Shown one piece after another: positions 9,519 to 42,971 of a stretch of 43,439 bases of DNA. Position 1 is the stretch's first letter. Every line of letters starts with the position of its first letter. This DNA comes from an uncultured Clostridia bacterium (GTDB lineage Bacteria; Bacillota; Clostridia; TANB77; CAG-508), in the NCBI GenBank assembly GCA_944393365.1, contig CALXZZ010000002.1:1-43439 (forward strand), written 5' to 3'. Position numbers and translations under genes: made by a program. The notes under the pieces are model-generated. The model saw only the letters and a program-made list of their open reading frames with translations, ran no database searches and was not told where the DNA came from.

Positions 9519-12500
9519 TTAATTCTTTCCTAAAACGAATTTCTTAATTAAGATTATTCCTGATACTAATATTCCAAGTGAACTTATTGCTAATGTAATA
9601 TATGCTATATAATTTGTATTTAATCCTGTTGGTGGTAATATTACTAAACTTTCTGATGTCGCATCATCTGGCTCTGATGTACTTGAATCTGTTGGTACAT
9701 AATTTCCTGGTGTTGTTATTAATACAGATCCTCCGTTTTTAATTATCCTTATAATTTCTGCATTGTTTTCTAAGAATGTTTCATCTGCATTAGATAATAA
9801 TCTATATCCTTTTAATGCTACTTCTATAGTTGATCTGCTGTCTGAAGTTATTGTTTCTAAACCAACTGGTACTAATGCTTCACCTTCAAAGTCATCTGTT
9901 GTAATAACTCTACTAGTATCTGATAATACATCTTCTAAATCTTCTGATAATAATCCAGTGTTTATCAATTGTTCTTTTCTATTATCTTGATTTATTGTAT
10001 CCCAAGCTGCGTTTTCACTCATATCTGTTGATAAATTATTATCCAAATAATCTATAATCAATGCTGGTTGTAATGTTACTATACTATTTGCTTCTTCACC
10101 ATGACCAGTTCCATACATATAGAAATCTTGTGTTAAATATTCTAATTCACTAGTATTTGTTACTTCTAAGTTGTATTCTAATTCTATTCTTGCACTTTGT
10201 ACAACTTCTTGATCAACCTCTATTCTTACCATTCCATTTGCTCCTGGAGAAACCGGTGTTACAGATACATGTTGTGCTTGATCTACTAATTGTCCGTTTT
10301 CTAATTTTGCATTAACTAACAAGTTTCCGTCTGCTAATGTAATTCTTGCTGAAGTTATATGCTTATCTAATTCTAATATTTGTCTTGCTCTTTCAATTAT
10401 ACCAAAATCAACACTACTAATTGTATTTTCTAATTGATTAGTATAATCTGTAATATTATTATTATTGTCATCTGTATCAGTATATTCAATATATACTCTA
10501 AAGCTTTGTGTATTAGAATTCATTTGTGCATTATCATATTTATCTCCTGTTTCACTATCTCTATATGTATTTTCAAATTTTTGTTTTTCTCCATAAGTCA
10601 TTTCTTCTGTTTCTGAATCTATTTCAACTCTTGTTGCATAATCATCTACAGCATCTGAAGTTCTTATTTCTGTATTTGTTGTAGTATTCCATTCTAAGTC
10701 TTCATATGCTTGTTTAAAGGTATCATTATACCATTGATCTGATGTTCCTTTTGCATTCCATACATCTTCATTTACTACTGTACTCTTATAATTTTGTACA
10801 TTAACAACTTGTTCTTCTCCATCGTCTAAGGTATATGTTGAGTTAAGACCTGCGCCGTCTATATTTCCTCCCCATGTATACTGAACTTCATATTCTCCTG
10901 GTATAAATCCTTCAATTGTATATTCTCCGTTTTCATCTGTATATGTTATAGCATCTTCAAATTCTTCTGTATCTTTGTTATACACTTGAACTACATTTCC
11001 ATCTGTATCTACTAATGATACTCTTACATTTTCAATTCCTAGCTCATCTTCGTCATATTGTCCATTTCCTTGTCTTGCTATTCCTGTATGTACTTGCTGT
11101 CCGTCCTCTACAGCATTTTCGTCAGTATCTAAGAATACTTTTCCATTTACTCGTCTTTCTAACAAATCTGGATTTTCGTCTGGATCTGGATCTGGGTCTG
11201 GATCTGGGTCTGGATCTGGATCTGGGTCTGGATCCGGACTAGGATCTGGAATAAGTTCATTTGTTAATACTAATAATATACCTGGTGCTTTATCAGTATC
11301 GTCTTCCCATGTTGTCCTATCATTAATATCTGTATTTCCTGGTTGAGAATCTTTGTCTATTCCTGCATATACTTCATTTGTTCCTTCACTATTTGTTTTG
11401 GTTATACCATATTTCTTAATTTCTGATATATTATCCAATTTAGAATTTTCACTATCAGTATTTTCTATAATTTCAATAATGTCATCTTTATGAACTTGGA
11501 ATTGTATATATATATATCTTTCTTCTAACGGTTTTAATTCCAATATTGGCATATTATCTCCACCTATTGTCATTCCTTCATATTCACTACTTATTTCTTC
11601 TATTAATGAAGTATTAAGTCTAGTTTCTTCCTTTATGCTTCCATCCACATTAATATCTGTTCCTACTGCTATCAAATTATATTTTGAATCAAAATAATCA
11701 TCTAATTCATATATTTTTGCTCCTAGATTAGTTGAATTATTTCTAACAGCTATTTTATATGTCAATTCTACAGCTAATGGATCACCATTATCTCCATTAT
11801 AATATACATCTGATGCATATAATGGCCTTGTATATGACATTTCAGAATATTTTTCTTCAAATTTCACTTTTGGATCTAATTCATGTCCACTTACACCATT
11901 ACTATTATCTGCCCATAATTCTTGATTAAATCTATCTCCGTATTTATATACGTGTTGCGTTCCTACTATACTTACTTTAGCACTTTCTATATCTTTTACT
12001 ACAGATAAATCTGGTCTTTCTCTTTTCTTTAATCCCAAATTTATTCCTTCATCAAATGTAGAACCTATTTCTGTTATTCCATTTCTTCTTATATAGTCTG
12101 CAGTCATTATATCTGATAAATATCCTGTTTGACCAACTGATGTATATGCATTATATGTACTAGACGAAATTAAGTATTTATCATCAACTCCATTGACTGG
12201 ATAATATGTTTTATATTCATCTAATGTAACTCCTACATATGGTGCAACTTCTTCTATTGTATCATCATTATATCCAAATAGATATTCTCCTTCATAATCG
12301 ATTGAACTTGTGTAATTTCCAGTATTATATTGGATATCATTTATTTTTGTTCCACTACTATCATTTGATTGTCCTGTTGTAATTTGAGCAAAACCTTCAT
12401 TAAATATTGCTCTATTTTCACCTTCAATAGCATCTGTTCCTCTTTTATTATTTATATCTATAATACTAACTGATTCATAAGCCATACCATTATAAGAAAA

Positions 12501-15500
12501 TTCTATATAATACTTATCTAAGTTGTCTATTAATACATCTACCATTGTATACTTTCCATTAGAATCAGTGTAAGTCTCATCGACTAGCTCTCCATCATCT
12601 TCTTCTCTAAACTGTACTATATTACCTTCATTATCTCTCAGTCTAACAGTAATATTTTCAAGTAATTTGTCATTAACATCATCGCCTATAGACTGATATA
12701 AGTCATTTGTTTCATCTGTTTTTCCTATTTCCCAAGGTATATCTTCCCACGCATATCCTGAAATTTTTATATATTTTCTTTGGTTTTTAACATTCAATGT
12801 GGTTTTTTTGCCATTATTAATAGTCAAACTACTATTTACAACTTTAGGTAAGTCTTCATAACCATAATACGGATTTACAGTTTCTGTTAATTTATATGTT
12901 CCTGCTTCTAATAATTTTATTTCAATCTTTCCATTTTTATTTGTAGTTAGAGTTGTGGCTTTAGTAGTATAAGAAGCATTTCCGTTTTTATCAATTGATA
13001 CATAATAGTTTTCATGAGTGCCTGATGAAGTTTTTTGTAATGTAAATCCTATACCTTGTAATGCTTTATTACTATCTTCATCTGTTTTAGTTATTTCAAG
13101 TCTCCCCTTAATGTCTACAGCTCCAAAAGTAGCAGTCTTTGAAGCATTCGCATATGTATAAACTGTACTACTAGTATAGCTAGCTGTTATCATTCCTTGT
13201 GTTGAACTGGCTGAAATATCAACAGGTCTGCCACTTGAATTTTGATGTTCACCTGATCCAATAGAAGTACATCTATAATATAATTTATATTTTGTTGTTT
13301 TTGGTGTTCTTACAGCATTTTTAGTAGTAACTGTTATTTTCAAGCTATTAATTTTTTCTACATTAGTATTCACTTTTATATAAAATGTTTTATTACTATT
13401 TTGACTCATACTCAAACTAATTGGGTTACCACTACTATTAACAAGAAGACTTGTACTAGTTGACGTTTTTGTTTTGCCACTTTCAGTATAATTTAAAGTC
13501 ATCCCAGTAATTGATGATTCAGTACAATTACTTTTTAATTTATAGGGTCCAACTAGATTATAATTATTATTTAATGCTATTGTATCAACTGAATTAGCAT
13601 CTGCTGTTAAAGTTAATGTTTTTAACGTTTCATTAGAACCGTTCGTTGTAGATTGATTTCTTTTTGATCCTGAACCTCTATAATAATGATCATTTACTGC
13701 ACATAGATGCCATCCAGGATTTGCACAGTTATAACTAACTCCATTACTTCCAGTATATACACCACCTGAAGTCCATCTAATACTAAATCCATATACATTT
13801 GAAGATATAACAACTCCTAACATTCCTGTCATTATAAATACACTAAGCATATTTTTTATTTTTTTATTTTTAAAAGGTTTTATTTTTATTTTACCTTTAA
13901 TAACTAATATTACTACACTCAATAAACCTACTGCTAAAATTGCAAATATAGTATAAGTTATAATACCAGTTTCTATTGAAATCAATAGTTCTGCTTGCGA
14001 ATAATCATCTTCTGATGAATCATTATTTCCTGGGGTAGAATCAATATCAGCTAAATTATTTGCATTTTGACTTATTCCTATTTCTGAAATATTTATAACA
14101 CTTCCTGTTGAATCTTCATCCAAATCTCTTCTTAATGTTAGAGTTAATTCTCTTGATTCACCTGGCTCTATGAATTCTCCTGCAAGACTAGTATTTATTA
14201 AATCTCCACTTTCATTTTTTGACCACGTCATATTATCAGTAGCACTAAATGTGAATCCTTCTGGAATATAGTCTATTATTTGACTTGCAAATCCTTCTGT
14301 ATCACCTTCATTTGTTACAACAATAGTATACTTAACAGTAATACTACTATTTGCAATTTCTCTTGACTTTATATCAACTTTTGTAAATTGTGTATTTTGA
14401 TAATCATAAGTTTTAGTACCACTTGGTGTATTTACTACAACTTGACTTATGTATTTATCTAGCTTAAAGTCAAATCTACTATTACTTACTAATCCCATAT
14501 CAATATTTGATAAACCATTATCGGCAATAGTTAATGTATCAGTTATTCCTACATTTTTTACTACTCCATCTATTGATACTTCTCTAGAAATAGTATCTGA
14601 ATTCAATGTAGCTGAAACATTACTTTTTTGATAAGACGTTAAAGAATATTTACCCGTATCATATTCGAACAATACCCAATAATTACCATTTACAATGTTA
14701 TTAAATTCATATGCACCTTGTTCATTTGTAGTTGTTCTTAAAGTTTCACCATTCTCATTTTGTGCTATAGTTTGAGTATTTGCATCATAAACTTTTACTT
14801 CTATACCACTCATTAATTGTTCTGAATTGTCTCTTTTTCCATCTCTATTTGAATCTATCCAAGCAACACCTGAAATAGAATTAGGTTCTGCAGTTGTTCC
14901 CCCATTATTGTTATCTCCATCTCCACCTTGATCACCATCGCCGGTATTAGGATCTTCTTCATCTTCATATGCTGCTAACAATGTAAAACTAACAATATTA
15001 GAAGTAACTGTTTTTATTCCTTCATTTGCCTCTTCTTCAGTTCTTTCAGCAGTTGCATAATTAGACACTTCTACTGTTTCAATAGAATCTATTGCAGTAG
15101 CTTTAATTGTCATTGTAACAGTTTTTCCAGCAGGTATTTCTAAATATTCATCTACATTTGCCTCTCCTTCAATTATTAATGAAAGATCTCTTTCAACTTT
15201 TTCCATTTCATATTTAAGATTTGCTTCAGCTTCAATATCATACATAGTATCCCCAAACTCATCATCTAGGATAACATATTTTTCATATTCAAGAGAAATA
15301 GGTTCAAGATATTCTGGTAAATAATCATATACATGAGCAGTTGCCCTAATTTTTGATTCATTTGTTATTTTCAATGTGTATGTAACTTCTTCTCCTACTG
15401 TAACTTCTTCTCCTTCTTTATCAGAAGACATTTTTATTGTTACATAAGTTGGATATGCAGATCTTCTATTTTCATTTGAATAATAAATATCGTTTTCATC

Positions 15501-18047
15501 ACTATATGCTTTTACTGATAATCTTAATGGAACTTCATTTACATTATCATCAAAATTATATGCTTCTACATCAATTACTATTGTTATCGTTTGCCCTGGA
15601 GCAATAGAAGGTATAATTCCCTCTAAATATCCATTTGCATAATTTCCAAACTTTTGAAGCATTAAATCACTATTAAAAGTATAATAATAAGAATCAAGAA
15701 CATTTAGTTCTTTTTGAAATTCAGTAGATTCTACATATACATTATTTACCGTTTCATTTGTCAAATTGGTAATTTCCAAGAAATATGAAAAAGCATTTTT
15801 TTGGTCTCTTCCTATATATGATTTCAAGTATACATCTAAATCTGATTTTATTAATTTATTTTCTAGTGTAACTCTGTCATATTCTTCATTATCAATACTT
15901 GCAGAAATTGTATTACTTATATCTTTTTCATTAACACCATCTTCTAGGTCTTTAACTACTACTTCATAAAAACCTGTTTTAGTCTGTCCTGGCTCTAATG
16001 TCTCTGCAACAAATGAATATTCTTTCAAATCTGGATTTTCAATATAATCATATGCCTCTTCAAGATATGTACCAATATCTACTGTTGCATAAACTGTATT
16101 TTCTGGTATTTGACAATTTATATTAACATTATTCATTGTTTTATCTGTTGTATTTGTAACATTTACAACATATTTAATAATTTCACTAGTATGAATACTA
16201 TCTCCATTTTCTAGTATTTTATCTCCTACTTGTGCATATACATCTAATTTGATTCCTTCTCTTCTAATTTCTTCATTAGATGTATTTATATTTGAATTCT
16301 CTGAGTCTGGAGTTTCTGTTATTGAATTATTTACATCCTGATCTACTTCTGTTTCCACTAATTGTTCGTTTGTATCTGTTTCAATATTATTAACATTATT
16401 TACTGTATTAACAATATTTAATAAAATATCTTCGCATATTCCTTGTTCTGTTATATAATTATTTCCAGAGATAACCTCATTTGTAAAACTTGCTTTAATA
16501 GCAGTTTCTGTTGTAGTAATGTCATTTCTTACTATTATATTAGCAGGAATTACAATATTAGTTCCATTGTTAATTGTATCATTATTATATGAAGTTTGTT
16601 CTCCTTCTAATTGTATAACAATTTCCTTACTTCCATCACTATTATCTATCACATTGCTATCTGCAACATTAAGACCATTTCCATATAATACAGAAACATC
16701 ACCTAATACTACTTTTTCCACTTCTGATGGTAATGTAATTCTTAAAACAGGGTTTCTAAATAAATTGTATTCATTATCATTTGATTTTAAAGTTGCCGTT
16801 AATACAACATTATTAGTCACACCATTGCCTAAATTATTATTATCAATTTGAAGATCAATATCAGATTTTGCACTTTCTATCTCTGTAATTTTTTGTGAAT
16901 CTTCAACTAACCCATTTGCTAATGATATATTTTCACTAGTAACTATTCTTTTTGCATTCAAATCAGTTACTGTACTTTTTATAACCTTATTATTTTGTAA
17001 TCTAATAATTCCTTCCTTAATTGGTGTAGAAAATTCTAATTTAATATTTTCTGTATTTTCTCCATATAATATTTCTATAATACCTTCTTGAGATTCTTCT
17101 GTATCTTTATTTATCTCTTGCAAAACACTTCCGTCTTGTGCCAATAACTTTATAGTTCCATTTTCTCCCAAAATATTAATCATATCTTGTTTACTTATTT
17201 GAGTACTTGTATAAATAATATTATCAACATCATTCAAATCTTGTCCGTTCTCATTTTGCCAAGTATTACTTTGTTCTATTACTATTTTTTCTCCTATATC
17301 TTTGTAACTAACTAATATATTCATAGATTCTTTATATGTAGTTTCATAAGTAGTACCATAAGCTTTATTGGATTTAATATAACCATCATATACTGTTTCA
17401 GTTCTAATATCTGAAGAAATTATACTACCAATATTTTCAGTAAGATTTTGTGTATATGATAATGTTTGTGTAACACTTCCTATTTCTTCATTATATAAAT
17501 CTTCACTAACTACTGCTTTTATTTCAATATTTCGTTCAGCATTTTGATCTGTATACACATTTTCTCCATATATACAGATAACTTCATATTCATCTCTTGC
17601 TGTGCTATTATATTGATTATATGGCTCTTCTCCTTCATTACTAGCAGTTAATTGTAAAATTCCTTTTTCATTATCATATGAATAATTACCTTCTATATTG
17701 CTAGTCTGTCCATTAGTAGCTTTTGTACTTTGAGCAATTACTTCTATTCTTTCTGGTAATTCTCCATTTATTTTAGGAACTTCTACTAATGTTGTTGTCT
17801 TTTTAATCGCACCATAATTCTGACCCTCTTCATATTCAATTCCTGTTTTTACATTAAATTGCAAAAGAGTGCCTTTTCTTTCTTCGATATTAAAATTATT
17901 ATATTTACTAATTGATATTTCTATTAAAGCTTTTGCTTTTTCTTCTAAGCTATTTACTATTTCTTCTGCAAAAACCATTGAATGTGCAAATAGCAAAGTA
18001 AATATCAACATAAATACAATGACAGTTTTTAAAACTCTTCCCTTCAT
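9519..18047 (-). CDS. Giant fused surface protein (cassette 3: A3 and B3 modules in one 2,842-codon ORF)
   Basis: GGAGG RBS and signal peptide (MKGRVLKTVIVFMLIFTLLFAHSMVFA). The N-terminal 1,399 aa are collinear with the A proteins at 28942-33876 and 38115-42926. The C-terminal 1,443 aa are collinear with the B proteins at 24534-28937 and 34120-38097. It ends with LPPTG, a TM helix and a basic tail. Confidence 0.8.
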   Translation of the reverse strand: MKGRVLKTVIVFMLIFTLLFAHSMVFAEEIVNSLEEKAKALIEISISKYNNFNIEERKGTLLQFNVKTGIEYEEGQNYGAIKKTTTLVEVPKINGELPERIEVIAQSTKATNGQTSNIEGNYSYDNEKGILQLTASNEGEEPYNQYNSTARDEYEVICIYGENVYTDQNAERNIEIKAVVSEDLYNEEIGSVTQTLSYTQNLTENIGSIISSDIRTETVYDGYIKSNKAYGTTYETTYKESMNILVSYKDIGEKIVIEQSNTWQNENGQDLNDVDNIIYTSTQISKQDMINILGENGTIKLLAQDGSVLQEINKDTEESQEGIIEILYGENTENIKLEFSTPIKEGIIRLQNNKVIKSTVTDLNAKRIVTSENISLANGLVEDSQKITEIESAKSDIDLQIDNNNLGNGVTNNVVLTATLKSNDNEYNLFRNPVLRITLPSEVEKVVLGDVSVLYGNGLNVADSNVIDNSDGSKEIVIQLEGEQTSYNNDTINNGTNIVIPANIIVRNDITTTETAIKASFTNEVISGNNYITEQGICEDILLNIVNTVNNVNNIETDTNEQLVETEVDQDVNNSITETPDSENSNINTSNEEIRREGIKLDVYAQVGDKILENGDSIHTSEIIKYVVNVTNTTDKTMNNVNINCQIPENTVYATVDIGTYLEEAYDYIENPDLKEYSFVAETLEPGQTKTGFYEVVVKDLEDGVNEKDISNTISASIDNEEYDRVTLENKLIKSDLDVYLKSYIGRDQKNAFSYFLEITNLTNETVNNVYVESTEFQKELNVLDSYYYTFNSDLMLQKFGNYANGYLEGIIPSIAPGQTITIVIDVEAYNFDDNVNEVPLRLSVKAYSDENDIYYSNENRRSAYPTYVTIKMSSDKEGEEVTVGEEVTYTLKITNESKIRATAHVYDYLPEYLEPISLEYEKYVILDDEFGDTMYDIEAEANLKYEMEKVERDLSLIIEGEANVDEYLEIPAGKTVTMTIKATAIDSIETVEVSNYATAERTEEEANEGIKTVTSNIVSFTLLAAYEDEEDPNTGDGDQGGDGDNNNGGTTAEPNSISGVAWIDSNRDGKRDNSEQLMSGIEVKVYDANTQTIAQNENGETLRTTTNEQGAYEFNNIVNGNYWVLFEYDTGKYSLTSYQKSNVSATLNSDTISREVSIDGVVKNVGITDTLTIADNGLSNIDMGLVSNSRFDFKLDKYISQVVVNTPSGTKTYDYQNTQFTKVDIKSREIANSSITVKYTIVVTNEGDTEGFASQIIDYIPEGFTFSATDNMTWSKNESGDLINTSLAGEFIEPGESRELTLTLRRDLDEDSTGSVINISEIGISQNANNLADIDSTPGNNDSSEDDYSQAELLISIETGIITYTIFAILAVGLLSVVILVIKGKIKIKPFKNKKIKNMLSVFIMTGMLGVVISSNVYGFSIRWTSGGVYTGSNGVSYNCANPGWHLCAVNDHYYRGSGSKRNQSTTNGSNETLKTLTLTADANSVDTIALNNNYNLVGPYKLKSNCTESSITGMTLNYTESGKTKTSTSTSLLVNSSGNPISLSMSQNSNKTFYIKVNTNVEKINSLKITVTTKNAVRTPKTTKYKLYYRCTSIGSGEHQNSSGRPVDISASSTQGMITASYTSSTVYTYANASKTATFGAVDIKGRLEITKTDEDSNKALQGIGFTLQKTSSGTHENYYVSIDKNGNASYTTKATTLTTNKNGKIEIKLLEAGTYKLTETVNPYYGYEDLPKVVNSSLTINNGKKTTLNVKNQRKYIKISGYAWEDIPWEIGKTDETNDLYQSIGDDVNDKLLENITVRLRDNEGNIVQFREEDDGELVDETYTDSNGKYTMVDVLIDNLDKYYIEFSYNGMAYESVSIIDINNKRGTDAIEGENRAIFNEGFAQITTGQSNDSSGTKINDIQYNTGNYTSSIDYEGEYLFGYNDDTIEEVAPYVGVTLDEYKTYYPVNGVDDKYLISSSTYNAYTSVGQTGYLSDIMTADYIRRNGITEIGSTFDEGINLGLKKRERPDLSVVKDIESAKVSIVGTQHVYKYGDRFNQELWADNSNGVSGHELDPKVKFEEKYSEMSYTRPLYASDVYYNGDNGDPLAVELTYKIAVRNNSTNLGAKIYELDDYFDSKYNLIAVGTDINVDGSIKEETRLNTSLIEEISSEYEGMTIGGDNMPILELKPLEERYIYIQFQVHKDDIIEIIENTDSENSKLDNISEIKKYGITKTNSEGTNEVYAGIDKDSQPGNTDINDRTTWEDDTDKAPGILLVLTNELIPDPSPDPDPDPDPDPDPDPDPDPDENPDLLERRVNGKVFLDTDENAVEDGQQVHTGIARQGNGQYDEDELGIENVRVSLVDTDGNVVQVYNKDTEEFEDAITYTDENGEYTIEGFIPGEYEVQYTWGGNIDGAGLNSTYTLDDGEEQVVNVQNYKSTVVNEDVWNAKGTSDQWYNDTFKQAYEDLEWNTTTNTEIRTSDAVDDYATRVEIDSETEEMTYGEKQKFENTYRDSETGDKYDNAQMNSNTQSFRVYIEYTDTDDNNNNITDYTNQLENTISSVDFGIIERARQILELDKHITSARITLADGNLLVNAKLENGQLVDQAQHVSVTPVSPGANGMVRIEVDQEVVQSARIELEYNLEVTNTSELEYLTQDFYMYGTGHGEEANSIVTLQPALIIDYLDNNLSTDMSENAAWDTINQDNRKEQLINTGLLSEDLEDVLSDTSRVITTDDFEGEALVPVGLETITSDSRSTIEVALKGYRLLSNADETFLENNAEIIRIIKNGGSVLITTPGNYVPTDSSTSEPDDATSESLVILPPTGLNTNYIAYITLAISSLGILVSGIILIKKFVLGKN
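9624..9638 (-). other. LPPTG sortase-type sorting motif (B3)
   Basis: VILPPTGLNTNYIAYITLAISSLGILVSGIILIKKFVLGKN: motif, hydrophobic helix and basic tail. Confidence 0.75.
11178..11249 (-). repeat. Hexanucleotide tandem repeat encoding a PDPS(PD)10 linker
   Basis: Repeats of CCAGAT/CCAGAC on the - strand (GGATCTGG/GGGTCTGG on the + strand). They translate to PDPSPDPDPDPDPDPDPDPDPDPD within the B3 module. Confidence 0.9.
13851..18047 (-). other. A3 module of the fused ORF
   Basis: DUF11-like repeats (e.g. VTYTLKITNESKIRATAHVYDYLPEYLEP). SdrD-B-like domain ISGVAWIDSNRDGKRDNSEQLMSGIEVKVYD...GAYEFNNIVNGNYWVLFEYD. The C-terminus is ADIDSTPGNNDSSEDDYSQAELLISIETG, a TM helix and a Lys-rich stretch. 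Confidence 0.75.
13965..13979 (-). other. SIETG motif preceding the A3 TM helix
   Basis: AELLISIETGIITYTIFAILAVGLLSVVILVIKGK. It is positionally equivalent to SIRTG in A1 and A2. Confidence 0.6.
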
Positions 18048-24246: not shown

Positions 24247-24285
24247 TTGTAATTCCTCCACACAATTATGTTTATTACTAATATA

Positions 24286-24533: not shown

Positions 24534-27500
24534 CTATTTTCTTAATGTTCTTTTTATTAGTATAATTCCTGCTGTAAATATTATTATAACAACAAATCCT
24601 ATAATTCCGTAAATTATATAATTTTGATTTCCTCCAGTTGGTCCAGTAATTATAATTTCAACTTCAGATTCATCAGGCTCATTTGGAGTTTCGCTTGGAT
24701 CATAGTTTCCAGGTATACTATCATCTGGAACTCTATTTGTCGTTTCAGTAACTTCTACATCATTGTCAAATGTAAAGTCCATCTCATTATTAGATAACAA
24801 TCTTGTTAGATATAATTTATTTGTTTTTATTCTGTTATTCTCATCAGGACTCATATCACTAAAATAATCTGTATGTAATACTTTATTATATCTAGTAAGT
24901 GCTTCTAATGCTTCTGGTGATAACTGACCACTTTCTATTTGATCTGCTGTAATAGAAACCCATCCATTGTCTAAGTTGTTATTTTCATCATAGTTCAAAT
25001 CATTTGATACATAATCAAATAAATCTGTTACAGTTGCCATCTTCCAAACACCTGACTCATTATAATTACTTGGTACAGTATTATAATAATAATAATCTTT
25101 ACTATTGTAATCTACCTCACAAGCACTTAAATCTACAGTTATTTCATATTCTACCTTTAATGTAGCACCTTGTATAATTTCATTATCTACTTCAAGATAT
25201 ACAGTTTGACCTTGTTGAGGATTGCTTGATTGTGGTATTAACCTTAAGTTTTCTATTGTTTCAGTTCTTGGATCACCACTTATAAGTGTTTGACCATTTG
25301 CAAGTGTAACCTCTATATATGAAATTTCTTTCTTTATTCTTAATTGTTGCATTGGTCTTCTTATTATACCAAAATCTATATTGTTAAAGTCAAATTTCAA
25401 ATCTGCACCATATTCACTTATATTATCTAAGTTAACATCATAATCTAATTTAATATCAAATTGTTTAGATTCTGCTGTTATTTCTTCTAATTTAGCATCT
25501 TCAACTGCATAAGCATAATTTACTACATCAACTGTTGTTCTTCTATCTACAATATCAATATTATCACTATTTTCTAAAGTTGAGTCATCACTATATTTTC
25601 CTGAAATATCTCGTGCATCTGATAATCTTGTTGCTTCACCTGTTTCTTGCCTATACCAATATAAATTATTATCTTCAGCTTCTTCTTTATTTCCATCCCT
25701 ATATTTTGTTGATTTATATTTTTGTGCTTGTATTTGTGTTTCAGTTCCACTATCTATGTCTACAATATAGCTATTATTACCATATGTATATCTTAGCAAA
25801 TATTGTCCAGGTATTACACCTTCAAATATGTAATTACCATCACTTCCTGTTGTGTATTGTGCAGGAACAGCATTCGCTTGTCCTCTTTGATATAGATTTG
25901 CAACAGAGTAATTTCCGTCATCATCTATTGATAATAATTCAACTTGTACATTTCTTACCACATTTTCATTTTCGGAATCATATCTTCCGTCACCTTCTCT
26001 ACGTTTGTCATATCCAGTACCATTTAGTAATTCTTCTATTGCACTATCTTCCCATATTGTTCCTTGAATTATTCTTGTATATGAATTACCATCTGGATCA
26101 TCAGGATTATCTGAATCTGTTGATTTTAATATTAATGTAGGTGCTGAATCTGTATCATCTTCATAAGTTGTTCTATCAATTGTTGTAATAGAATTTGGTC
26201 TTGAATCTTTATCTACTCCACTATATACTGTACTAAATCCATTTTCAAATGATGAATATGAAGTTACTTCTGTAATAGATGATAATGTTACATCTTGATT
26301 TAATACAGCATTTACTGCATCATTATTTAATTTATATTGTACATATATTTCTACTGTATTACTTTCACTAGCAGATATTGGTGGTATTTCTTCACCTGTT
26401 CCTACATAAATAATTGATTTTCTATAACCATTTTGGTTATATCCTTCATCTATTCTATTTTCAATAGAATTAACAACATCTCCATTTTCATCTATTTGAT
26501 ATCCTGTTGCTACAAGTTCAAAATCATCGTCATAGTAATTTGCCAATTCATTTAACCTAGTATATACACTTGTTGCTTCATTTCTAATAGCTATTTTATA
26601 TGTAATATATACTCCTAGTTTTCCGTTTCCTTCTTCTGATTGGTTATATATAAGGTCTGATGAGTATATTTCTCTTGTATAACTATTATCTAAGTATTTT
26701 TCTCCAAACTTAACAGATACATTAAATCCATCTTCTCCATTTTCTCTAAATTCTCCATCAGTATCAAATCTTTGTGAATATTGATATATATGTTCATAAC
26801 CATTTAATGTTACTTTTGCATTTTGTATATCCTGCATAACTGCTAAATCTGGCATTTCTCGTTGTACAATACCCAAATTGATATATGGTATTTCTTCCAT
26901 ATTATTTGCATAAATATCATTTGCCGTTAGATTTTTACCCATTATTCCATTATTTGCATCTTTTGTGTTTGCAAATGTTTTATATTTATTATCTATTCCG
27001 TCAATTGGGTATGCTTGTCCATCATATCCATATATGTAACTTGACGTATCACTAGAATATTTTAATGTACTTTTATTATTAGCATAATCATATTCTAAAT
27101 TAGTTAATCTTCCTTCTGTATCTGTAGCTCCCTCACTTGTTACTGTTGCATATCTTGTACTATAGAAATATTGATTATTTTCTCCAGATTTGTTTCTATT
27201 GGTTTCATCTGTTGCTTTACTTCCATTATTTGCACTTGGATTTAATGCTACTGATTTATAAGTCATTCCATTATACTCAAATTCAATATATGCACCATTT
27301 ACAATATCATCTATTAAGATTTTTTCATTTTCAAATCCACTTGCTAAATAATTTCCAAATGTATATTTACCTGAAGAATCTGTTTTCCTTGGTTGTATCT
27401 CATGTCCATCTTCTGCTTTTAAAAGATTTCCATTTGCATCTCTTAAACTTACTGTCATATTTGCAATTAGTTTATCGAAATTATCATTTTCATTTTGATT

Positions 27501-28937
27501 ATATAAGTCATTTCTTACTGATTGTTTTTCACTTATAATGTCTTCCCATACATAACCACTTAATTTTATATATTTTCTTTTATTTTTCATTGTTACGTTA
27601 ATTGTTTGTCCTACTGCTGATATATTTGCAGCCACTTCAGTAGATGGATTATCAATACTTGTTTCTTCATACCCAAAGTATGGTTGTTTTACTTCATAAA
27701 TTGTATATTTTCCACTTTTACTCAAGTTTCTTATATTTACTATTCCTTGAGAATTTGAAGTATATACCGTTGCATCTGATTTATTACTTACATATTGTGC
27801 AGGTGTTCCATCTTTAACCCATTTTTTTTCAGTTTCGTTATATACAATAAATCCTACATTTGCCAAAGCTTTTCCAGAATCTGCATCTTTTTTAGTTATT
27901 TTAATATAACTAAATGGAACTCCTGGTAATTCTATTTCATCTCGTGATGTTGAAGAATCAAGTGTTCCTCCCCATATTGCAACATTTTGACCACCATCTG
28001 ATTGACAGAAAATCATTCTTGCTCTCATAAAACCAGATGAAGTTTTTACAACTTTAACTTTATCAACACTATCTGGTTTATTAGTTCTAAATGCAAGATA
28101 AAATGTTGTTCCATTTGGTAGATTTTTATTTTGATGAATATTAGAAGTACTTACAGAAGTTGTCCAACCATCTGCTTCATATGATCTTCCAGATTTACTA
28201 ATTGCTGTAATACTACTAATTGTCCCTGATCCAGTATTTTCTATTTTATATGGTCCTACTAAAAGCCAATTTCCAACTTCATACATTGCTTGGGCATTTT
28301 TTGTACTTTTATCTTCAAACGAATATGTAACTGTACTATTTACATAGTTCATAGCTTCTTGTTTTAATCTTTCTGGTTGACCTGCATACATTTTACCAGC
28401 TAAATCATAATAACTTCCTGAAAAACAGCTTCCGAATAATCCCGCCATATTTGATTGATTATTAATTAATCTTCCTTGTAACATCATTTTATATGGAGTA
28501 TTATCAGCTCCAAATGTACTAGATTCATTGTTCTGATATGCCTTAGTAGCATAATACATTATTTCCATTACTGCTCTTGCAGCTTGATAATTATTGCTAG
28601 AACTACCTGTATTTTTAGTTGACCAATTATTAACACTTGAAATTCCATTTTTTCCCACATCTACTACATATGTTCTCATATTTCCATGGTTTGCACCACC
28701 ATGGTTATCATCTGGATCTATACAATATGCTGAACGTGTACGAGTAAGTCTGCTTATTACTCTTGTTGATCCGTCTGTATATGATTCAACTGACATGTTT
28801 AAAAATTCATCTAAATTATTTTCCGCTGCATACCACATATCATACATATAATTTTTTGCCATTGAAGCATTTGTACCAAAATATAGTGCTATGACAAATA
28901 TTATTATTAGTTTAATAAGTTTTCTCAATTTTTGCAT
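24534..28937 (-). CDS. B2: LPxTG-like-anchored giant surface protein (Cys-containing N-domain, SpaA-like and SdrD-B-like stalk)
   Basis: Signal peptide MQKLRKLIKLIIIFVIALYFGTNASMA. Motifs: AYCIDP, GGQNVAIWGG, a SpaA-like domain (GFIVYNETEKK...GKYTIYEVKQPYFGYE), RKYIKLSGYVWEDI, GVDKDSRPNS...YEDDTDSAP, and a second SdrD-B-like domain (IQGTIWEDSAIEE...GNYIFEGVIPGQYLLRYTY). The C-terminus is IITGPTGG, a TM helix and KRTLRK. The ATG lies 4 nt after the A2 stop codon, and the AGGAGG RBS sits inside the last A2 codons. Confidence 0.8.
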   Translation of the reverse strand: MQKLRKLIKLIIIFVIALYFGTNASMAKNYMYDMWYAAENNLDEFLNMSVESYTDGSTRVISRLTRTRSAYCIDPDDNHGGANHGNMRTYVVDVGKNGISSVNNWSTKNTGSSSNNYQAARAVMEIMYYATKAYQNNESSTFGADNTPYKMMLQGRLINNQSNMAGLFGSCFSGSYYDLAGKMYAGQPERLKQEAMNYVNSTVTYSFEDKSTKNAQAMYEVGNWLLVGPYKIENTGSGTISSITAISKSGRSYEADGWTTSVSTSNIHQNKNLPNGTTFYLAFRTNKPDSVDKVKVVKTSSGFMRARMIFCQSDGGQNVAIWGGTLDSSTSRDEIELPGVPFSYIKITKKDADSGKALANVGFIVYNETEKKWVKDGTPAQYVSNKSDATVYTSNSQGIVNIRNLSKSGKYTIYEVKQPYFGYEETSIDNPSTEVAANISAVGQTINVTMKNKRKYIKLSGYVWEDIISEKQSVRNDLYNQNENDNFDKLIANMTVSLRDANGNLLKAEDGHEIQPRKTDSSGKYTFGNYLASGFENEKILIDDIVNGAYIEFEYNGMTYKSVALNPSANNGSKATDETNRNKSGENNQYFYSTRYATVTSEGATDTEGRLTNLEYDYANNKSTLKYSSDTSSYIYGYDGQAYPIDGIDNKYKTFANTKDANNGIMGKNLTANDIYANNMEEIPYINLGIVQREMPDLAVMQDIQNAKVTLNGYEHIYQYSQRFDTDGEFRENGEDGFNVSVKFGEKYLDNSYTREIYSSDLIYNQSEEGNGKLGVYITYKIAIRNEATSVYTRLNELANYYDDDFELVATGYQIDENGDVVNSIENRIDEGYNQNGYRKSIIYVGTGEEIPPISASESNTVEIYVQYKLNNDAVNAVLNQDVTLSSITEVTSYSSFENGFSTVYSGVDKDSRPNSITTIDRTTYEDDTDSAPTLILKSTDSDNPDDPDGNSYTRIIQGTIWEDSAIEELLNGTGYDKRREGDGRYDSENENVVRNVQVELLSIDDDGNYSVANLYQRGQANAVPAQYTTGSDGNYIFEGVIPGQYLLRYTYGNNSYIVDIDSGTETQIQAQKYKSTKYRDGNKEEAEDNNLYWYRQETGEATRLSDARDISGKYSDDSTLENSDNIDIVDRRTTVDVVNYAYAVEDAKLEEITAESKQFDIKLDYDVNLDNISEYGADLKFDFNNIDFGIIRRPMQQLRIKKEISYIEVTLANGQTLISGDPRTETIENLRLIPQSSNPQQGQTVYLEVDNEIIQGATLKVEYEITVDLSACEVDYNSKDYYYYNTVPSNYNESGVWKMATVTDLFDYVSNDLNYDENNNLDNGWVSITADQIESGQLSPEALEALTRYNKVLHTDYFSDMSPDENNRIKTNKLYLTRLLSNNEMDFTFDNDVEVTETTNRVPDDSIPGNYDPSETPNEPDESEVEIIITGPTGGNQNYIIYGIIGFVVIIIFTAGIILIKRTLRK
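24633..24647 (-). other. TGPTG sorting-type motif (B2)
   Basis: EVEIIITGPTGGNQNYIIYGIIGFVVIIIFTAGIILIKRTLRK. Confidence 0.55.
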
Positions 28938-28941
28938 TTAT

Positions 28942-31900
28942 TTACCTCCTTTCTTTTTTTAGTAAATCATCTGTTAGTTTATCTTCATCTAATATATCTT
29001 CACTTAATGCATTTTCGCCAAATACATTTCTTCTTATTAAATAAATTCCTGCGCCTAAAATTCCAACTATTATAAATATTAAAGTTGTATAAATAATAGG
29101 GCCACCTGTTCTAATTGATACCAATACTTCCGCTGAACTCATATCATCTTCTCCACTGATTTTATTATTTGGTGTTGAATCAATATCATCAATAGATAGT
29201 GAGTTACTTACTTCAGTTAATTCAGCTTGGTTAATAATATTTCCAGTATTGTTGCTATTTAGATTTTTTATTAATGTTAATGTTACAGTTTTTGTTTCTC
29301 CCGGATTTATTATTTGATTTGAAAGTTCATTACTACTCAAATCACCATCTGCTGTTTGATACCAGTTTTTATTCATTTCAGAACTAAATTCCAAATCTTT
29401 TGGCATATAGTCTGTTAACCTATTTACATATCCTGCTAATTCACCTTCATTTGTAATATCAATTTGATATTCAATTATTATTCTTGCACCATTAATTCTC
29501 TTAGCATCTATTTCTACTTTAGCTAGTTTTTCTTTATTAAATTGATTTACAGTAGTTCCTCTTGAATCTTGAACAATTACTTCATTAACATATTTATCAA
29601 TTCTTAAATCAAATCTATCTGCTCTAATAAATCCAGCATCTATGTTAGTTATATTTGAATCACTTACCTCTATTGTAGCAGTTACAGCTACTGTATGCTC
29701 TGTACCCTGTAAGCTTAAGTTCCTACTAATAACGTCTGAATTTTTATCTTCAGTTATTCCTGATTTTTGATATTCTGTTAAGTAATATTCAGTATTATCA
29801 TATTGGAAAATAACTAAATAATTTCCTGGTTGTATTTCTGTAAATACATAACTACCTGTTTCATCAGTATTTTTAATACATTCATCTTCATTTTGGTTTA
29901 AAGCTATTTCTCCTGTTTCTGCATTTATTAAAAATACTGGAATATTAGAAAGAGTTTCTTCATAATCTTCTCTATAACCATTTTTATTTTCATCTAACCA
30001 AGCTGTTCCACTTATTTCATATGTATTATATTCACCTGGTACTTCTGGTTGATCTTCTCCTTCTCTTTCTACTTGATGAGTAATTTCATTACAAGTAATA
30101 TCTTGCATAAATACTTCAAATTCAACTTCGTTTGTAATTTCTTTTTCAAATGCTTTTTCAGTATCTATTACTGTATTAATAACTATTCTAGCTTCATAAC
30201 CATCTGCTAAATTAAAAGTATGAGTTATCATATTATTTGCTTCATCTATTTCAATTTCTTGTTCTTCTGCTAAATTTCCATCAGTATCATAAATTTCTAA
30301 TTTACTATTAGATATTACAGCAGCAAATGGTACATAATCTGTAATTGTTATTTCTTTATCTTCTGGTCCCTCATTTCTAACTGCTATTTCATATGTTAAC
30401 TCATCACCGTTTTTTACTGTATCTCCTTCTATACTTCCTGTTTGTTCTGCTGTAATCTTACTTATTTCATTATAGAAAGTTCTTGATAATTCATTTGAAA
30501 TATATGTTTCTCCATTCATTTCACCAGTAAAGAAGAAGTTCATTTCTTGTTCTCTAATATTTTCATCAAAAGCTTCAACATATAACGCAAGACGTATACC
30601 TATTTTTTCTCCCGCTGGAATTGTTGGTATTCTAAGTGTTAATACACTATCTTCATAAGATACAAATTCAAAATTATCTTCTTCAAATAGGTAATCTGTT
30701 GAAAATGAAAATCCTTCTGGTACATTTAATGTTAACATTACATCGTTTTGCTCTTCATTAGTCAAATTAGTTACATCCATAAAAAATGGATATTGCCTGT
30801 TTGTTAAAACTCTATATTCTTGAGCATATTTATCTCTCATTTGTAATTTTAATTGTGATTTTTCTATTTCATTAGTAACTGTATTTATCGTTTTTTCTTC
30901 AATTCCATCAGCAGATATTTTAATTTCACCACTTGTTTCTACTTGTTCTCCTTCAATTTGTTTTACTGAAAATTGATAACTTAAAGTTACACTTTCTCCT
31001 GGCTGTAATGAATCTACTGTTAATACTTTTTCTAGTAAATCTTCATTTTCTACTATATCAGTATATTTTATATCAGTTGCACCAGTAGTTGAATCCCAAC
31101 CATCATTTTGTACTAGTTCATCATAAAATATAGCATTTGTTTGGGTTGCATTTATATTTATATTTGTAATTTCTTCTGTTCCTGTATTTTCTAATCTAAT
31201 AATATTTTTTATTCCTTGCCCCTCTTTTACTATATCACCATCAGCTAAATTTTGTCCTCCAGTTCTTGATACTAGACTAACAGACAAATCTTTCACAATA
31301 TCTGTGACTTCTAAATTTTGATTCTCTTCTAATCCTTCTGAATTTGTCTCTACCTGTGCCTCTGTTGTTAATCTAATTTTAGAAACATTTTCTAAATCGT
31401 TTCCTAAATAATTATATCTTACATAAACTTGATTTTCTTCATTTATATTTCCTTGAAGTCCTTCTTTTATTTTTAAATCATATGTAACTTTTAGCACCTC
31501 AGATGAATTTAATTGATTTTCAGCTACATTTATCTTAAATAGTTTTACTTTACTTTCATCTTCTATTGTTTCTTGCCAATTTTGAGTATTTATATCTTCA
31601 TCTTCTGAATAATAAATTTTTGATTCTCTACCTTCAACAGCTATGTTATTAATATCCGTAATATTTGATATAGTTCCTATAATTTCAAAATTACTAATAT
31701 TAGTTGTATAATTATTTATAACAGATATTACTCCATTAGCATTTCTTTCACTTGCATTTATGTCTAATTTTGCCTCTTTTACATTATCATCGAAACTTTC
31801 TATACTTTCTCCACTATTATTATAATTTTCTAATTCATTAATTACTAAAATTCCATCTTTTGAATTTATTTTTATTGGAACAGAAGTATTAAATGTCTCT

Positions 31901-33876
31901 CCGCTTCTATTTTCATTTGTATAATTCATACTTATTTCTGTTTGCATTGTTGGTACTGTTTTATCAATTGTAATATCTGCTATAATTGAAATTTGAATTC
32001 CTTCATTAATATTATTTTCAAAAGATAACTGTTCTCCTTGTAAATGCAATGAAATTGTTTTAGTTCCATCTTCATTATTAATCAATCTTGGTTCTACTAT
32101 AGTTAATTCATTCTGTCTATTTAATTGTGTAATATTTTTAACATTAATATTTATCTCTCTTGGTAATACAATTTCAATACTTGGATTTTTATATAAATCA
32201 TATTGCTCATTATTACTTACTAAAGTAACTAAAAATTGTACATTTTCATTTGTTTGTAATGTAGATAAATTACTATTATTTACTTCTAACTTTGCTTCTG
32301 TCTTTGTATCAACTAAATTTATAGAAGCTTCTCCAATTTCTTCTCCTAATTGTGTTGATACTGAACTTCTAGAAATAAGTCTAGTAAATAATTTTAATTG
32401 ATCTTTAGTATAACTATTTTGTCCCTTTAAAGCCTTTGTATGTTTAAATATCAAAGTTCCTTCTGATATTGGTTTAGAAATAGTCATTTTAATATTTTTA
32501 TGCTCTACATCATAGGCAATATTTATATTTCCATTTTCATCTGTTATAGTATTATTATCAATTATTGTGATATTTACATCATTTTCGTCTTTAATTATGA
32601 TATTTCCAGATTCCCCTAAGATATCTAACATGTTTTGTTTATTTATAGAAATATCTTTATATGTAACACTATCATTTGCAACATATTCTTGATTTTCATC
32701 AGTTACAAATTGATTATCTAATGTTTGTATTTGCATATTTTCTATACTTTGTGCATTTGAAATATTAATACTATCTTCTTCTTCAAAAGCTATTTCATTT
32801 TCTACTCCGGCATATAAATATCCTTTATATATTTCTTGTTTTAATATACTTTTTTCCAAATCTACTATATTACCTTTTTTTGTAACTTGAACATCTTGCA
32901 TATCTTGTTTTTGGACTTCGTCTTTTGTAAATAACTTTGTAGACACTGATGTATTAATTTGTATTGTTTTGTCATTTTCACCAATTTCGCTTGGATATAT
33001 ATATATTATTTGATAAATATTTTGAGCATTTCCCCAATTAGTTGTATTATCTGTAGTTATTAAATCTATATTTTGAACTTGTAGCAAGTTATTTTCTTTA
33101 TCATAATTTATATTTCCTTGCTCTAATTTTTCTCCATTCAATAATACATATATGTCTTCAGGTTGTTGTTCTTCTATAACAGGAACATTTATATTTAATG
33201 TTTCTTGTTCTCTTGGTAATTTATCATCAATAACATTTGTTATAACATTTTGTTGCAACAAGATTCCATTGCTACCTAAATTTATAAACTTTTCTATATT
33301 TTGACTTAAAGTAATATCTGTATCCGCACTCCAATTAATTTTTAAATTTCTTTCTGCTGTTACAGTAGTTTCTGTTTCATCTTTGTAAGTTCCTGAAACT
33401 GTAATCAAATTTTCTTGTTCAAAGTAATTCATATCAAAAGTATTTTGTTTTTTAAATTTAATTGGAATTTCTATCTCTATATTATTTCCAGATGGTATTG
33501 AGTTTAAAGCTATTTCATTTGTTTCTTCATTTATTTCCTTTATATTTGAATTTTGTACTTTATCTTTAACTATTTCAAAATTACCATTTGCCATTTGTAT
33601 TTTTGCATCATTTAATATTCCCTTATTTTTAACACTTATGTATAAAATAAGAGTAGCTTCCACATCAACATTTATTTGTTTTTCATGTATTGTTGAATTA
33701 TCTTGTTTAAAATACACATCAAAATCAACATTTTGGACATTTGTTGATGTATTTTGTTCTTCTAAATTTTCTGATACTGCTAATACCAAATTATATCCAA
33801 TGAACACAAAGTTCACCATTGTTAATAGCACTATCAATAAAGATGCAATTAGTACTTTTAAAATCCTTCTTTTCAT
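28942..33876 (-). CDS. A2: giant DUF11-like and SdrD-B-like repeat surface protein with SIRTG, a TM helix and an acidic tail
   Basis: Signal peptide MKRRILKVLIASLLIVLLTMVNFVFIGYNLVLA. DUF11-like repeats (VTYEIAVRNEGPEDKEITITDYVP; IKNIIRLENTGTEEITNININ). SdrD-B-like domain ISGTAWLDENKNGYRED...GSYVFTEIQPGNYLVIFQYD. The C-terminus reads DDIDSTPNNKISGEDDMSSAEVLVSIRTGGPIIYTTLIFIIVGILGAGIYLIRRNVF, followed by a 25-aa acidic tail. Confidence 0.8.
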   Translation of the reverse strand: MKRRILKVLIASLLIVLLTMVNFVFIGYNLVLAVSENLEEQNTSTNVQNVDFDVYFKQDNSTIHEKQINVDVEATLILYISVKNKGILNDAKIQMANGNFEIVKDKVQNSNIKEINEETNEIALNSIPSGNNIEIEIPIKFKKQNTFDMNYFEQENLITVSGTYKDETETTVTAERNLKINWSADTDITLSQNIEKFINLGSNGILLQQNVITNVIDDKLPREQETLNINVPVIEEQQPEDIYVLLNGEKLEQGNINYDKENNLLQVQNIDLITTDNTTNWGNAQNIYQIIYIYPSEIGENDKTIQINTSVSTKLFTKDEVQKQDMQDVQVTKKGNIVDLEKSILKQEIYKGYLYAGVENEIAFEEEDSINISNAQSIENMQIQTLDNQFVTDENQEYVANDSVTYKDISINKQNMLDILGESGNIIIKDENDVNITIIDNNTITDENGNINIAYDVEHKNIKMTISKPISEGTLIFKHTKALKGQNSYTKDQLKLFTRLISRSSVSTQLGEEIGEASINLVDTKTEAKLEVNNSNLSTLQTNENVQFLVTLVSNNEQYDLYKNPSIEIVLPREININVKNITQLNRQNELTIVEPRLINNEDGTKTISLHLQGEQLSFENNINEGIQISIIADITIDKTVPTMQTEISMNYTNENRSGETFNTSVPIKINSKDGILVINELENYNNSGESIESFDDNVKEAKLDINASERNANGVISVINNYTTNISNFEIIGTISNITDINNIAVEGRESKIYYSEDEDINTQNWQETIEDESKVKLFKINVAENQLNSSEVLKVTYDLKIKEGLQGNINEENQVYVRYNYLGNDLENVSKIRLTTEAQVETNSEGLEENQNLEVTDIVKDLSVSLVSRTGGQNLADGDIVKEGQGIKNIIRLENTGTEEITNININATQTNAIFYDELVQNDGWDSTTGATDIKYTDIVENEDLLEKVLTVDSLQPGESVTLSYQFSVKQIEGEQVETSGEIKISADGIEEKTINTVTNEIEKSQLKLQMRDKYAQEYRVLTNRQYPFFMDVTNLTNEEQNDVMLTLNVPEGFSFSTDYLFEEDNFEFVSYEDSVLTLRIPTIPAGEKIGIRLALYVEAFDENIREQEMNFFFTGEMNGETYISNELSRTFYNEISKITAEQTGSIEGDTVKNGDELTYEIAVRNEGPEDKEITITDYVPFAAVISNSKLEIYDTDGNLAEEQEIEIDEANNMITHTFNLADGYEARIVINTVIDTEKAFEKEITNEVEFEVFMQDITCNEITHQVEREGEDQPEVPGEYNTYEISGTAWLDENKNGYREDYEETLSNIPVFLINAETGEIALNQNEDECIKNTDETGSYVFTEIQPGNYLVIFQYDNTEYYLTEYQKSGITEDKNSDVISRNLSLQGTEHTVAVTATIEVSDSNITNIDAGFIRADRFDLRIDKYVNEVIVQDSRGTTVNQFNKEKLAKVEIDAKRINGARIIIEYQIDITNEGELAGYVNRLTDYMPKDLEFSSEMNKNWYQTADGDLSSNELSNQIINPGETKTVTLTLIKNLNSNNTGNIINQAELTEVSNSLSIDDIDSTPNNKISGEDDMSSAEVLVSIRTGGPIIYTTLIFIIVGILGAGIYLIRRNVFGENALSEDILDEDKLTDDLLKKERR
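29104..29118 (-). other. SIRTG motif preceding the A2 TM helix
   Basis: SSAEVLVSIRTGGPIIYTTLIFIIVGILGAGIYLIRR. Confidence 0.6.
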
Positions 33877-38097: not shown

Positions 38098-38114
38098 CGT
38101 TTCTTCCTCCTTTC

Positions 38115-42926: not shown

Positions 42927-42971
42927 AGTGATGTCCTCCTTTTCATTTCTACATTTTCCCACCTATTACAT

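Follow-up and report, generated by a model that had tools for sequence, protein, structure and literature searches.

Cell wall sorting signals are treated as strictly C-terminal. The streptococcal IgA1 protease (Zmp) combines a signal peptide, an LPXTG motif, two hydrophobic segments, and a proposed second signal peptidase site ahead of the exported enzyme (PMC3518915). Substrates of the clostridial (S/P)PXTG class are cut between T and G, and linked to meso-diaminopimelic acid, by the Clostridioides difficile SrtB. Here, we analyzed a 43,439-nucleotide stretch of DNA from an uncultured Clostridia bacterium (contig CALXZZ010000002.1, positions 1 to 43,439), hereafter the window, in which an open reading frame (ORF) of 2,842 codons encodes two complete proteins in one frame. 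The first, of A type, consists of a signal peptide, an ectodomain, an SIETG pentapeptide, a transmembrane (TM) segment, and a basic tail, and it runs directly into the second, of B type. This ORF, the A3-B3 gene, is genuine and evolutionarily old, and we think it probable that its product is a two-in-one precursor from which two surface proteins of Gram-positive type arise. No protein name was found for the A or the B family in any source searched.

Organization of the fused A3-B3 gene

The fused gene occupies positions 9519..18047 of the minus strand, which is the strand of all of its parts given below, and comprises 2,842 codons and a stop; full-length homologues are the proteins P0001-P0086. 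A first-pass annotation of the window had described an in-frame A-B fusion at this place, and the ORF does read through the junction; the sequence statements of that annotation hold throughout, the one point to add being the minus-strand orientation. It starts with an ATG at 18047, with GGAGG 8 nucleotides (nt) upstream. The translation opens with a Sec signal peptide (MKGRVLKTVIVFMLIFTLLFAHSMVFA, followed by EE; 17967..18047), and this N-terminal hydropathy peak is kept in the homologues. The A3 ectodomain follows (residues 28-1356; 13980..17966), in which Pfam recognized SdrD_B, DUF11, and CarboxypepD_reg-type beta-sandwich domains.

The junction begins with the internal sorting-signal-like pentapeptide SIETG (residues 1357-1361; 13965..13979), for which the family consensus is [LIV]-I-[SG]-[IV]-x-T-G. 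Directly behind it lies TM1 (IITYTIFAILAVGLLSVVILVI; 13899..13964), a strongly hydrophobic segment of 22 residues, predicted as a helix in an AlphaFold2 (AF2) model, that would be the stop-transfer part of an A-type anchor. A lysine-rich loop with a net charge of +8 (KGKIKIKPFKNKKIKN; 13851..13898), predicted to be cytoplasmic, contains a run of seven adenines (A7). The loop leads into an internal signal-peptide-like segment, TM2 (MLSVFIMTGMLGVVISSNVYG; 13788..13850), which opens with Met1400 (codon 13850-13848) and has a short h-region, a polar c-region, and Val at -3 and Gly at -1 of a predicted signal peptidase I site between VYG and FS. The whole junction reads ELLI-SIETG-IITYTIFAILAVGLLSVVILVI-KGKIKIKPFKNKKIKN-MLSVFIMTGMLGVVISSNVYG-FSIRW, with SIETG through TM2 forming residues 1357-1420, and the span 13788-13979 to which the first-pass annotation had drawn attention is exactly that from the motif to the c-region.

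Beyond the junction, the B part runs for about 1,420 further residues. Its ectodomain (residues 1421-2803; 9639..13787) comprises an N-terminal beta domain, SpaA (CnaB-type) domains with an E-box, a Pro-Asp (PD) repeat linker, and SdrD_B, with the SpaA and SdrD_B domains recognized by Pfam. The protein closes with a cell wall sorting signal of the usual C-terminal layout (9522..9638), namely, LPPTG (9624-9638), 26 uncharged residues that form TM3 (9546-9623), and the basic tail KKFVLGKN (9522-9545).

The junction is A rich, and both alternative frames run into stops within a few codons across it, as had been stated before; because the off-frames are full of stops, an open frame of 8.5 kb is not a chance event. 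An alignment of the internal segment with the signal peptide of B1, a stand-alone B protein encoded elsewhere in the window, had also been proposed, and it holds once the n-region is included (KNKKIKNMLSV... in B3 with MNKTKKIILSV... in B1). On that alignment, the n-region of B3 is still present as the second half of the loop. The loop looks like an A tail plus the former n-region of B, and an in-frame basic linker would have taken the place of a stop codon, a ribosome-binding site (RBS), and a start codon.

Conservation of the fused architecture

An A-rich junction invites the suspicion that a 1-nt indel in the A7 run, arising in sequencing or assembly, removed a stop codon from what are really two genes. 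TAA occurs within a few codons in both off-frames, and one A less in the run would yield ...KNKK-TAA and then ATG. The first-pass annotation had entertained such an error as the origin of the fusion, and comparison with other strains and with related loci refutes it. An independent assembly of a different strain (locus L001, encoding P0001) has junction DNA identical to that of the window, the A7 run included; its protein is 99% identical to that of the window, the differences being 14 substitutions and an indel of five PD-repeat units. Three more sequences of the same species, from ENA and Logan assemblies (P0378, P0380, and P0381), likewise match the window exactly in the junction peptide, with a PD repeat of varying length. 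Four same-species sequences in all thus share this peptide, one of them compared at the DNA level. In the orthologous loci L002 and L004, the junction codons are AAC AAT AAA ATT, and the frame stays open without any A7 run, which excludes a homopolymer error as the cause.

The same architecture was found well beyond these orthologues. Among species-representative metagenome-assembled genome (MAG) loci, which were found with two junction peptides, the junction is open in 18 of 18, with differing codons. Three of them (L010, L013, and L016) are open through the junction and meet a premature stop farther downstream, inside B, and two other loci reach a contig end; the early stops are possibly pseudogenes or assembly breaks. 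About 85 homologue clusters (at 90% identity), with lengths of 2,575 to 3,745 amino acids (aa) and identities from 72% down to about 30%, span both halves. Nearly all of these show four hydrophobic peaks, corresponding to the signal peptide, two internal segments, and the C-terminal TM segment, and the two internal segments, near residue 1,350, are separated by about 30 residues. A junction profile searched against 1.84 billion cluster representatives retrieved 1,131 proteins at an E value of ≤1e-3 and 265 at ≤1e-10. The best 150 matches include 72 complete fused proteins, 32 fragments that continue past TM1, and 44 sequences, either fragments or split A proteins, that end just after the TM segment; the clusters (at 50% identity) that extend beyond TM1 thus number at least 100. 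Synteny is kept as well: a species at 72% identity has the fused gene in the same position, immediately upstream of spoIIE and following a split A/B pair. All of the related loci come from MAGs of uncultured gut Clostridia of humans, rabbits, and mice.

The reading as a sequencing error was rejected on these grounds, since the junction is open in many independent assemblies with different nucleotide sequences; we give it almost no credence. That the fusion is real and conserved we regard as practically certain. Its history was examined in a simple neighbor-joining tree with midpoint rooting, built from the C-terminal 330 residues of A in 84 fused and 34 split proteins, a sample biased by the fused query. 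Fused and split forms separated into different clades, with the fused forms in a single one, so that the tree contains one change of state. From this single change it follows that the fusion (or a fission) presumably arose once, long ago, and that both forms would have been stable since. The fused architecture is ancient and a property of the family, not of the window alone, and a large clade of uncultured gut Clostridia has kept it.

A real fusion of the reading frame could still give two products, either by internal initiation at the Met codon at 13850 or by frameshifting or slippage on the A7 run that would end A3 early. The ATG is placed at the start of the h-region, and stops follow the A7 run in both shifted frames, as such schemes would need. 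However, the 30 nt that precede the ATG (AAACCTTTTAAAAATAAAAAAATAAAAAAT) do not contain a single G, and, as the first-pass annotation had noted, there is no Shine-Dalgarno sequence. That annotation had also considered independent initiation of B3 unlikely, and the orthologues make it less likely still: Met1400 is replaced by Ile (ATA) in P0002-P0007, L002, L004, and L005, and neither a Shine-Dalgarno sequence nor a start codon for a separate B3 was found at the junctions of the orthologues. Signal peptides need a basic n-region, which a start at this Met would drop. Because Met is Ile in the closest orthologues and a Shine-Dalgarno sequence is missing, B could not be produced alone with a working signal peptide. 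The A run is down to A5 or less in L002 and L004, and more distant members have none. Internal initiation was rejected for want of a Shine-Dalgarno sequence and of a conserved Met, and a programmed frameshift was rejected because the slippery run is not conserved; we consider either route to two products very improbable.

Conserved features of the junction

An alignment of the junctions of 27 diverse sequences had a mean column identity of only 28%. Its only invariant columns are T34 and G35, directly before TM1, and an Ile three residues further upstream is conserved in more than 90% of the sequences. The T-G pair precedes TM1 in 84 of 84 fused and 34 of 34 split A proteins inspected. TM1 consists of about 22 uncharged residues and is followed by a loop of 4 to 17 residues that is always basic, with a median net charge of +5. 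Over 19 residues, TM2 has a median hydropathy of 2.0, against values of 2.91 (TM1), 2.5 (N-terminal signal peptide), and 2.45 (TM3), and this lower value of TM2 matches the expectation for the short h-region of a signal peptide. Small residues at -3 and -1 are the rule of signal peptidase I. In about 23 of the 27 sequences, TM2 is followed by a polar stretch and then by a [VSTAI]-x-[GA] block (such as VYG, VNA, VFG, TFA, and VQA). The AF2 model of the junction is a helix-loop-helix with a pLDDT (predicted local distance difference test score) of 80 to 87 in the helices and lends weak support to a hairpin topology. These conserved elements, TM1, the basic loop, and a weaker TM2 with a -3/-1 pattern, support the internal out-in-out hairpin that the first-pass annotation had predicted.

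With the surrounding columns varying as they do, the conservation of the T-G pair is hard to explain without a role in processing or recognition, and its strict retention in fused and split proteins alike argues for recognition by some processing enzyme.

Proposed processing of the precursor

On the basis of these features, we propose that A enters Sec export through its N-terminal signal peptide, that TM1 halts transfer, and that the +8 basic loop remains in the cytoplasm. TM2 would then reinsert with its N terminus in and its C terminus out, restarting export for B, until TM3 halts transfer again, for an overall threading of out-in-out-in. Signal peptidase I would cut after VYG1420 and free the N terminus of B at F1421, and a sortase would cut between T and G at LPPTG and probably also at SIETG. 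The outcome would be two proteins, each anchored to the wall on its own and about 1,330 and 1,390 residues long, in a strict 1:1 ratio and at the same membrane site, with a hairpin of 60 residues as a by-product. We lean slightly toward the view that the precursor is processed into two wall-anchored products in this manner. Whichever processing model holds, the fusion enforces the equimolar and colocalized production of A and B.

The C termini of 83 complete fused homologues all carry, with four exceptions, [LVIT]-P-[PS]-T-G, or a near match to it of the form x-x-x-T-G, followed by a TM segment and KK; the four exceptions end in P-[PA]-Q-G. As judged from the motif, the B-type ends fit the (S/P)PXTG class cut by the C. 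difficile SrtB.

Several points weigh against the proposed reading. Proven sortase motifs (LPXTG, (S/P)PXTG, and NPQTN) have Pro at P4. The A-type motif, S-[IV]-x-T-G, lacks this Pro and has Ile or Val in its place. The similar NVQTG peptide of CbpA was not cleaved by the C. difficile SrtB in two in vitro studies, and the A motif was downgraded as a sortase site for that reason. The Pfam and NCBIfam anchor models did not match either sorting signal, even at an E value of ≤1. A search of all ORFs of the window and of the loci L001-L021 for a TLxTC-type signature found no sortase gene and only spurious antisense ORFs. The -3/-1 pattern was judged by eye from the alignment and without a calibrated predictor. 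Finally, the homologue searches began from fused queries, which biases the proportion of fused to split forms and leaves the existence of many fused clusters unaffected.

The motif without Pro, the uncut NVQTG analogue, the silence of the anchor hidden Markov models, and the lack of a linked sortase in the window or the loci examined all favor another reading, in which the fusion is real, SIETG is not a sortase site, and TM1, loop, and TM2 persist as a membrane hairpin. Both ectodomains would then be tethered in one polypeptide, should signal peptidase not cut, or A would be anchored in the membrane and only B linked to the wall through LPPTG. However, T-G is strictly conserved in each of the 118 fused and split proteins, immediately ahead of the TM helix and amid varying columns, which an uncleaved hairpin hardly explains. 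Also against it stand the conserved -3/-1 pattern after TM2 and the full layout of sorting signals, with motif, TM segment, and basic tail, in the split A proteins. We regard a persisting hairpin as the main rival, though an unlikely one.

A further possibility is that S-[IV]-x-T-G is a dedicated sorting signal and that the acyl-enzyme formed at it is resolved on the neighboring B protein instead of lipid II. The precursor would be cut and religated, with the differing motifs of A and B directing the two steps, to give a covalent A-on-B fiber anchored through LPPTG, a self-contained two-subunit "pilus in one gene." We consider this a long shot. In a weaker variant, the released TM1-loop-TM2 hairpin of 60 residues would itself be functional as a membrane peptide.

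Split A/B cassettes and the pairing of A and B

The window contains two further cassettes on the minus strand in which A and B are separate genes. Cassette 1 (34120..42962) consists of A1 (38115-42962) and B1 (34120-38097), and cassette 2 (24534..33876) consists of A2 (28942-33876) and B2 (24534-28937). The first-pass annotation had placed a stop codon, an RBS, and an ATG at the position matching the fused junction, and both junctions read that way, with AGGAGG in each. A1 ends with SIRTG, a TM segment, and KKKNHNKKI before its stop, and the A1/B1 junction reads ATA TAG gaaAGGAGGaagaaacg ATG, with a 17-nt spacer that contains AGGAGG. A2 likewise ends with SIRTG and a TM segment, followed by an acidic tail, and the A2/B2 junction reads GAA AGG AGG TAA ataa ATG. 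Here, AGGAGG lies within the 3' end of A2, in its last codons, and the gap from stop to start is 4 nt, which suggests tight translational coupling. The long acidic extension of A2 after the TM helix (RRNVFGENALSEDILDEDKLTDDLLKKERR; 28938-29060, minus strand) is unusual, and the tails of A1 and A3 are short and basic.

Apart from the stop, AGGAGG, and ATG between the genes, the split form has the same protein order, A tail, and B signal peptide as the fused form. Mutual identities are 29 to 39% among A1, A2, and A3 and 29 to 33% among B1, B2, and B3, and the three cassettes are old paralogues. The 120 best relatives of B1, down to 60% identity, are all stand-alone proteins. Split and fused architectures also occur side by side in related MAGs: a split A/B cassette lies directly upstream of the fused gene in L002, L004, L005, L007, L009, L011, and L015, about 8 to 9 kb upstream of the fused junction. 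The coexistence of the two architectures in one locus is conserved.

By the gene fusion argument, A and B would form a functional pair, given that the pair that is fused in A3-B3 occurs as two tightly coupled genes in cassettes 1 and 2. The fusion supports, as a Rosetta stone indication, that A and B work together. A partnership had been suggested by the first-pass annotation, and that reading is supported. The fusion itself is conserved, lies in the same place next to spoIIE at 72% identity, and forms one clade.

Domains of the A and B halves

No peptidase or protease domain was found by Pfam in the fused protein. A sequence search of the PDB matched B to a CnaB-type domain (4oq1), and the same search with A gave no match. 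The PD-repeat linker of B3 (PDPSPDPDPDPD...; 11178-11249, minus strand) varies in length among same-species sequences, the fused proteins of which are 2816, 2832, 2835, and 2842 aa long and about 99% identical outside the repeat.

The N-terminal domain of mature B3 (residues 1421-1659; 13071-13787, minus strand) has an all-beta AF2 model with a pLDDT of 91 over its first approximately 230 residues. Among 24 homologues, Cys20, His33, Gly79-Pro80, Phe134-Tyr135, Gln196, and Lys233 of this domain are invariant, and T-Q-x-M surrounds the Gln. No fold match to it was found in the PDB at an E value of <0.02. The best match to a TIE protein was 6fwv from Bacillus anthracis (Foldseek E value, 0.17 to 0.23; probability, 0.47 to 0.66; TM score, 0.23 to 0.26), and Pfam found no TED in B. 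The domain may represent an adhesin or covalent-bond domain of a new kind.

Genomic neighborhood

The neighboring genes include spoIIE, a gene for a WG-repeat protein, acpS, tatD, an M48 peptidase gene, and lemA, and the region is chromosomal DNA of a spore-forming Clostridia bacterium. Between cassettes 2 and 3, the latter being the fused gene, lies a gene for a protein of 1,599 aa (19462-24261, minus strand). Its N terminus has a hydrophobic segment like that of pilins (KENGVTIVVLVVTIIVLLILA), and the protein also contains a dockerin type I domain and Listeria-Bacteroides (Flg_new) repeats; in strain L001, a version of 2,159 aa occupies this place. An ORF of 253 aa with choline-binding/cell-wall-binding repeats (18613-19374, plus strand) is located between the dockerin protein gene and the fused gene, and its L001 version has 341 aa.

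Implications

In the family described here, the C terminus lies about 1,480 residues beyond a complete sorting-type signal, which is itself followed by a complete signal peptide. If the precursor is processed as proposed, a single gene would supply a pair of wall proteins at one site and in a fixed 1:1 ratio, and the family offers a natural test case for the handling of tandem substrates by Sec, signal peptidase, and sortase. The T-G motif without Pro either extends the specificity of sortases or points to another processing enzyme. The fusion also provides strong evidence for the pairing of A and B surface proteins, which are widespread and unannotated in uncultured gut Clostridia. In annotation, it would be wrong to "correct" giant ORFs of this kind as if they were frameshifts. 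Substrate predictors limited to C termini will miss the internal signal.

Comparison with known systems

Full-text literature searches on an internal LPXTG motif, an internal signal peptide together with LPXTG, sortase polyproteins, and S[IV]xTG pentapeptides returned nothing relevant. The parts are known, namely, the sorting signal, the signal peptide, and a precedent for the hairpin; the joining of two complete sortase-type substrates is without a description in the literature searched. Compared with canonical sortase substrates, the A-type tail shares the layout of motif, TM segment, and basic residues but has Ile or Val instead of Pro at P4, resembling NVQTG, and in the fused protein the signal is internal. 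The invariant Cys and Gln of the N-terminal domain of B recall the Cys-Gln pair of thioester-domain (TIE/TED) adhesins; no TED matched its fold significantly. With sortase-assembled pilins, B has SpaA/CnaB-type domains with an E-box in common, but the pilin motif YPK is absent from B1, B2, and B3, which have the E-box only. The idea of a pilus locus was rejected because B lacks YPK and no sortase gene is nearby in the window or the related loci.

The closest likeness is to Zmp, in which a sorting signal also stands upstream of an exported domain and a second hydrophobic segment has been proposed to act as a second signal peptide (PMC3518915). The elements of that layout, an anchor motif, two hydrophobic segments, and a putative signal peptidase site, are all found at the A3-B3 junction as SIETG, TM1, the +8 loop, TM2, and VYG before F. 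There are differences, however. The Zmp motif comes after a short peptide only, whereas that of A3-B3 is preceded by a whole adhesin-like ectodomain, about 1,330 residues long. The downstream part of Zmp is an M26 metalloprotease with no C-terminal sorting signal, whereas that of A3-B3 is a full substrate with LPPTG. The two proteins have no sequence homology, and with neither the N-terminal motif nor the M26 domain, A3-B3 is not a member of the Zmp family and is comparable to it in its likely working. The N-terminal anchor of Zmp is the closest precedent for the junction hairpin of A3-B3.

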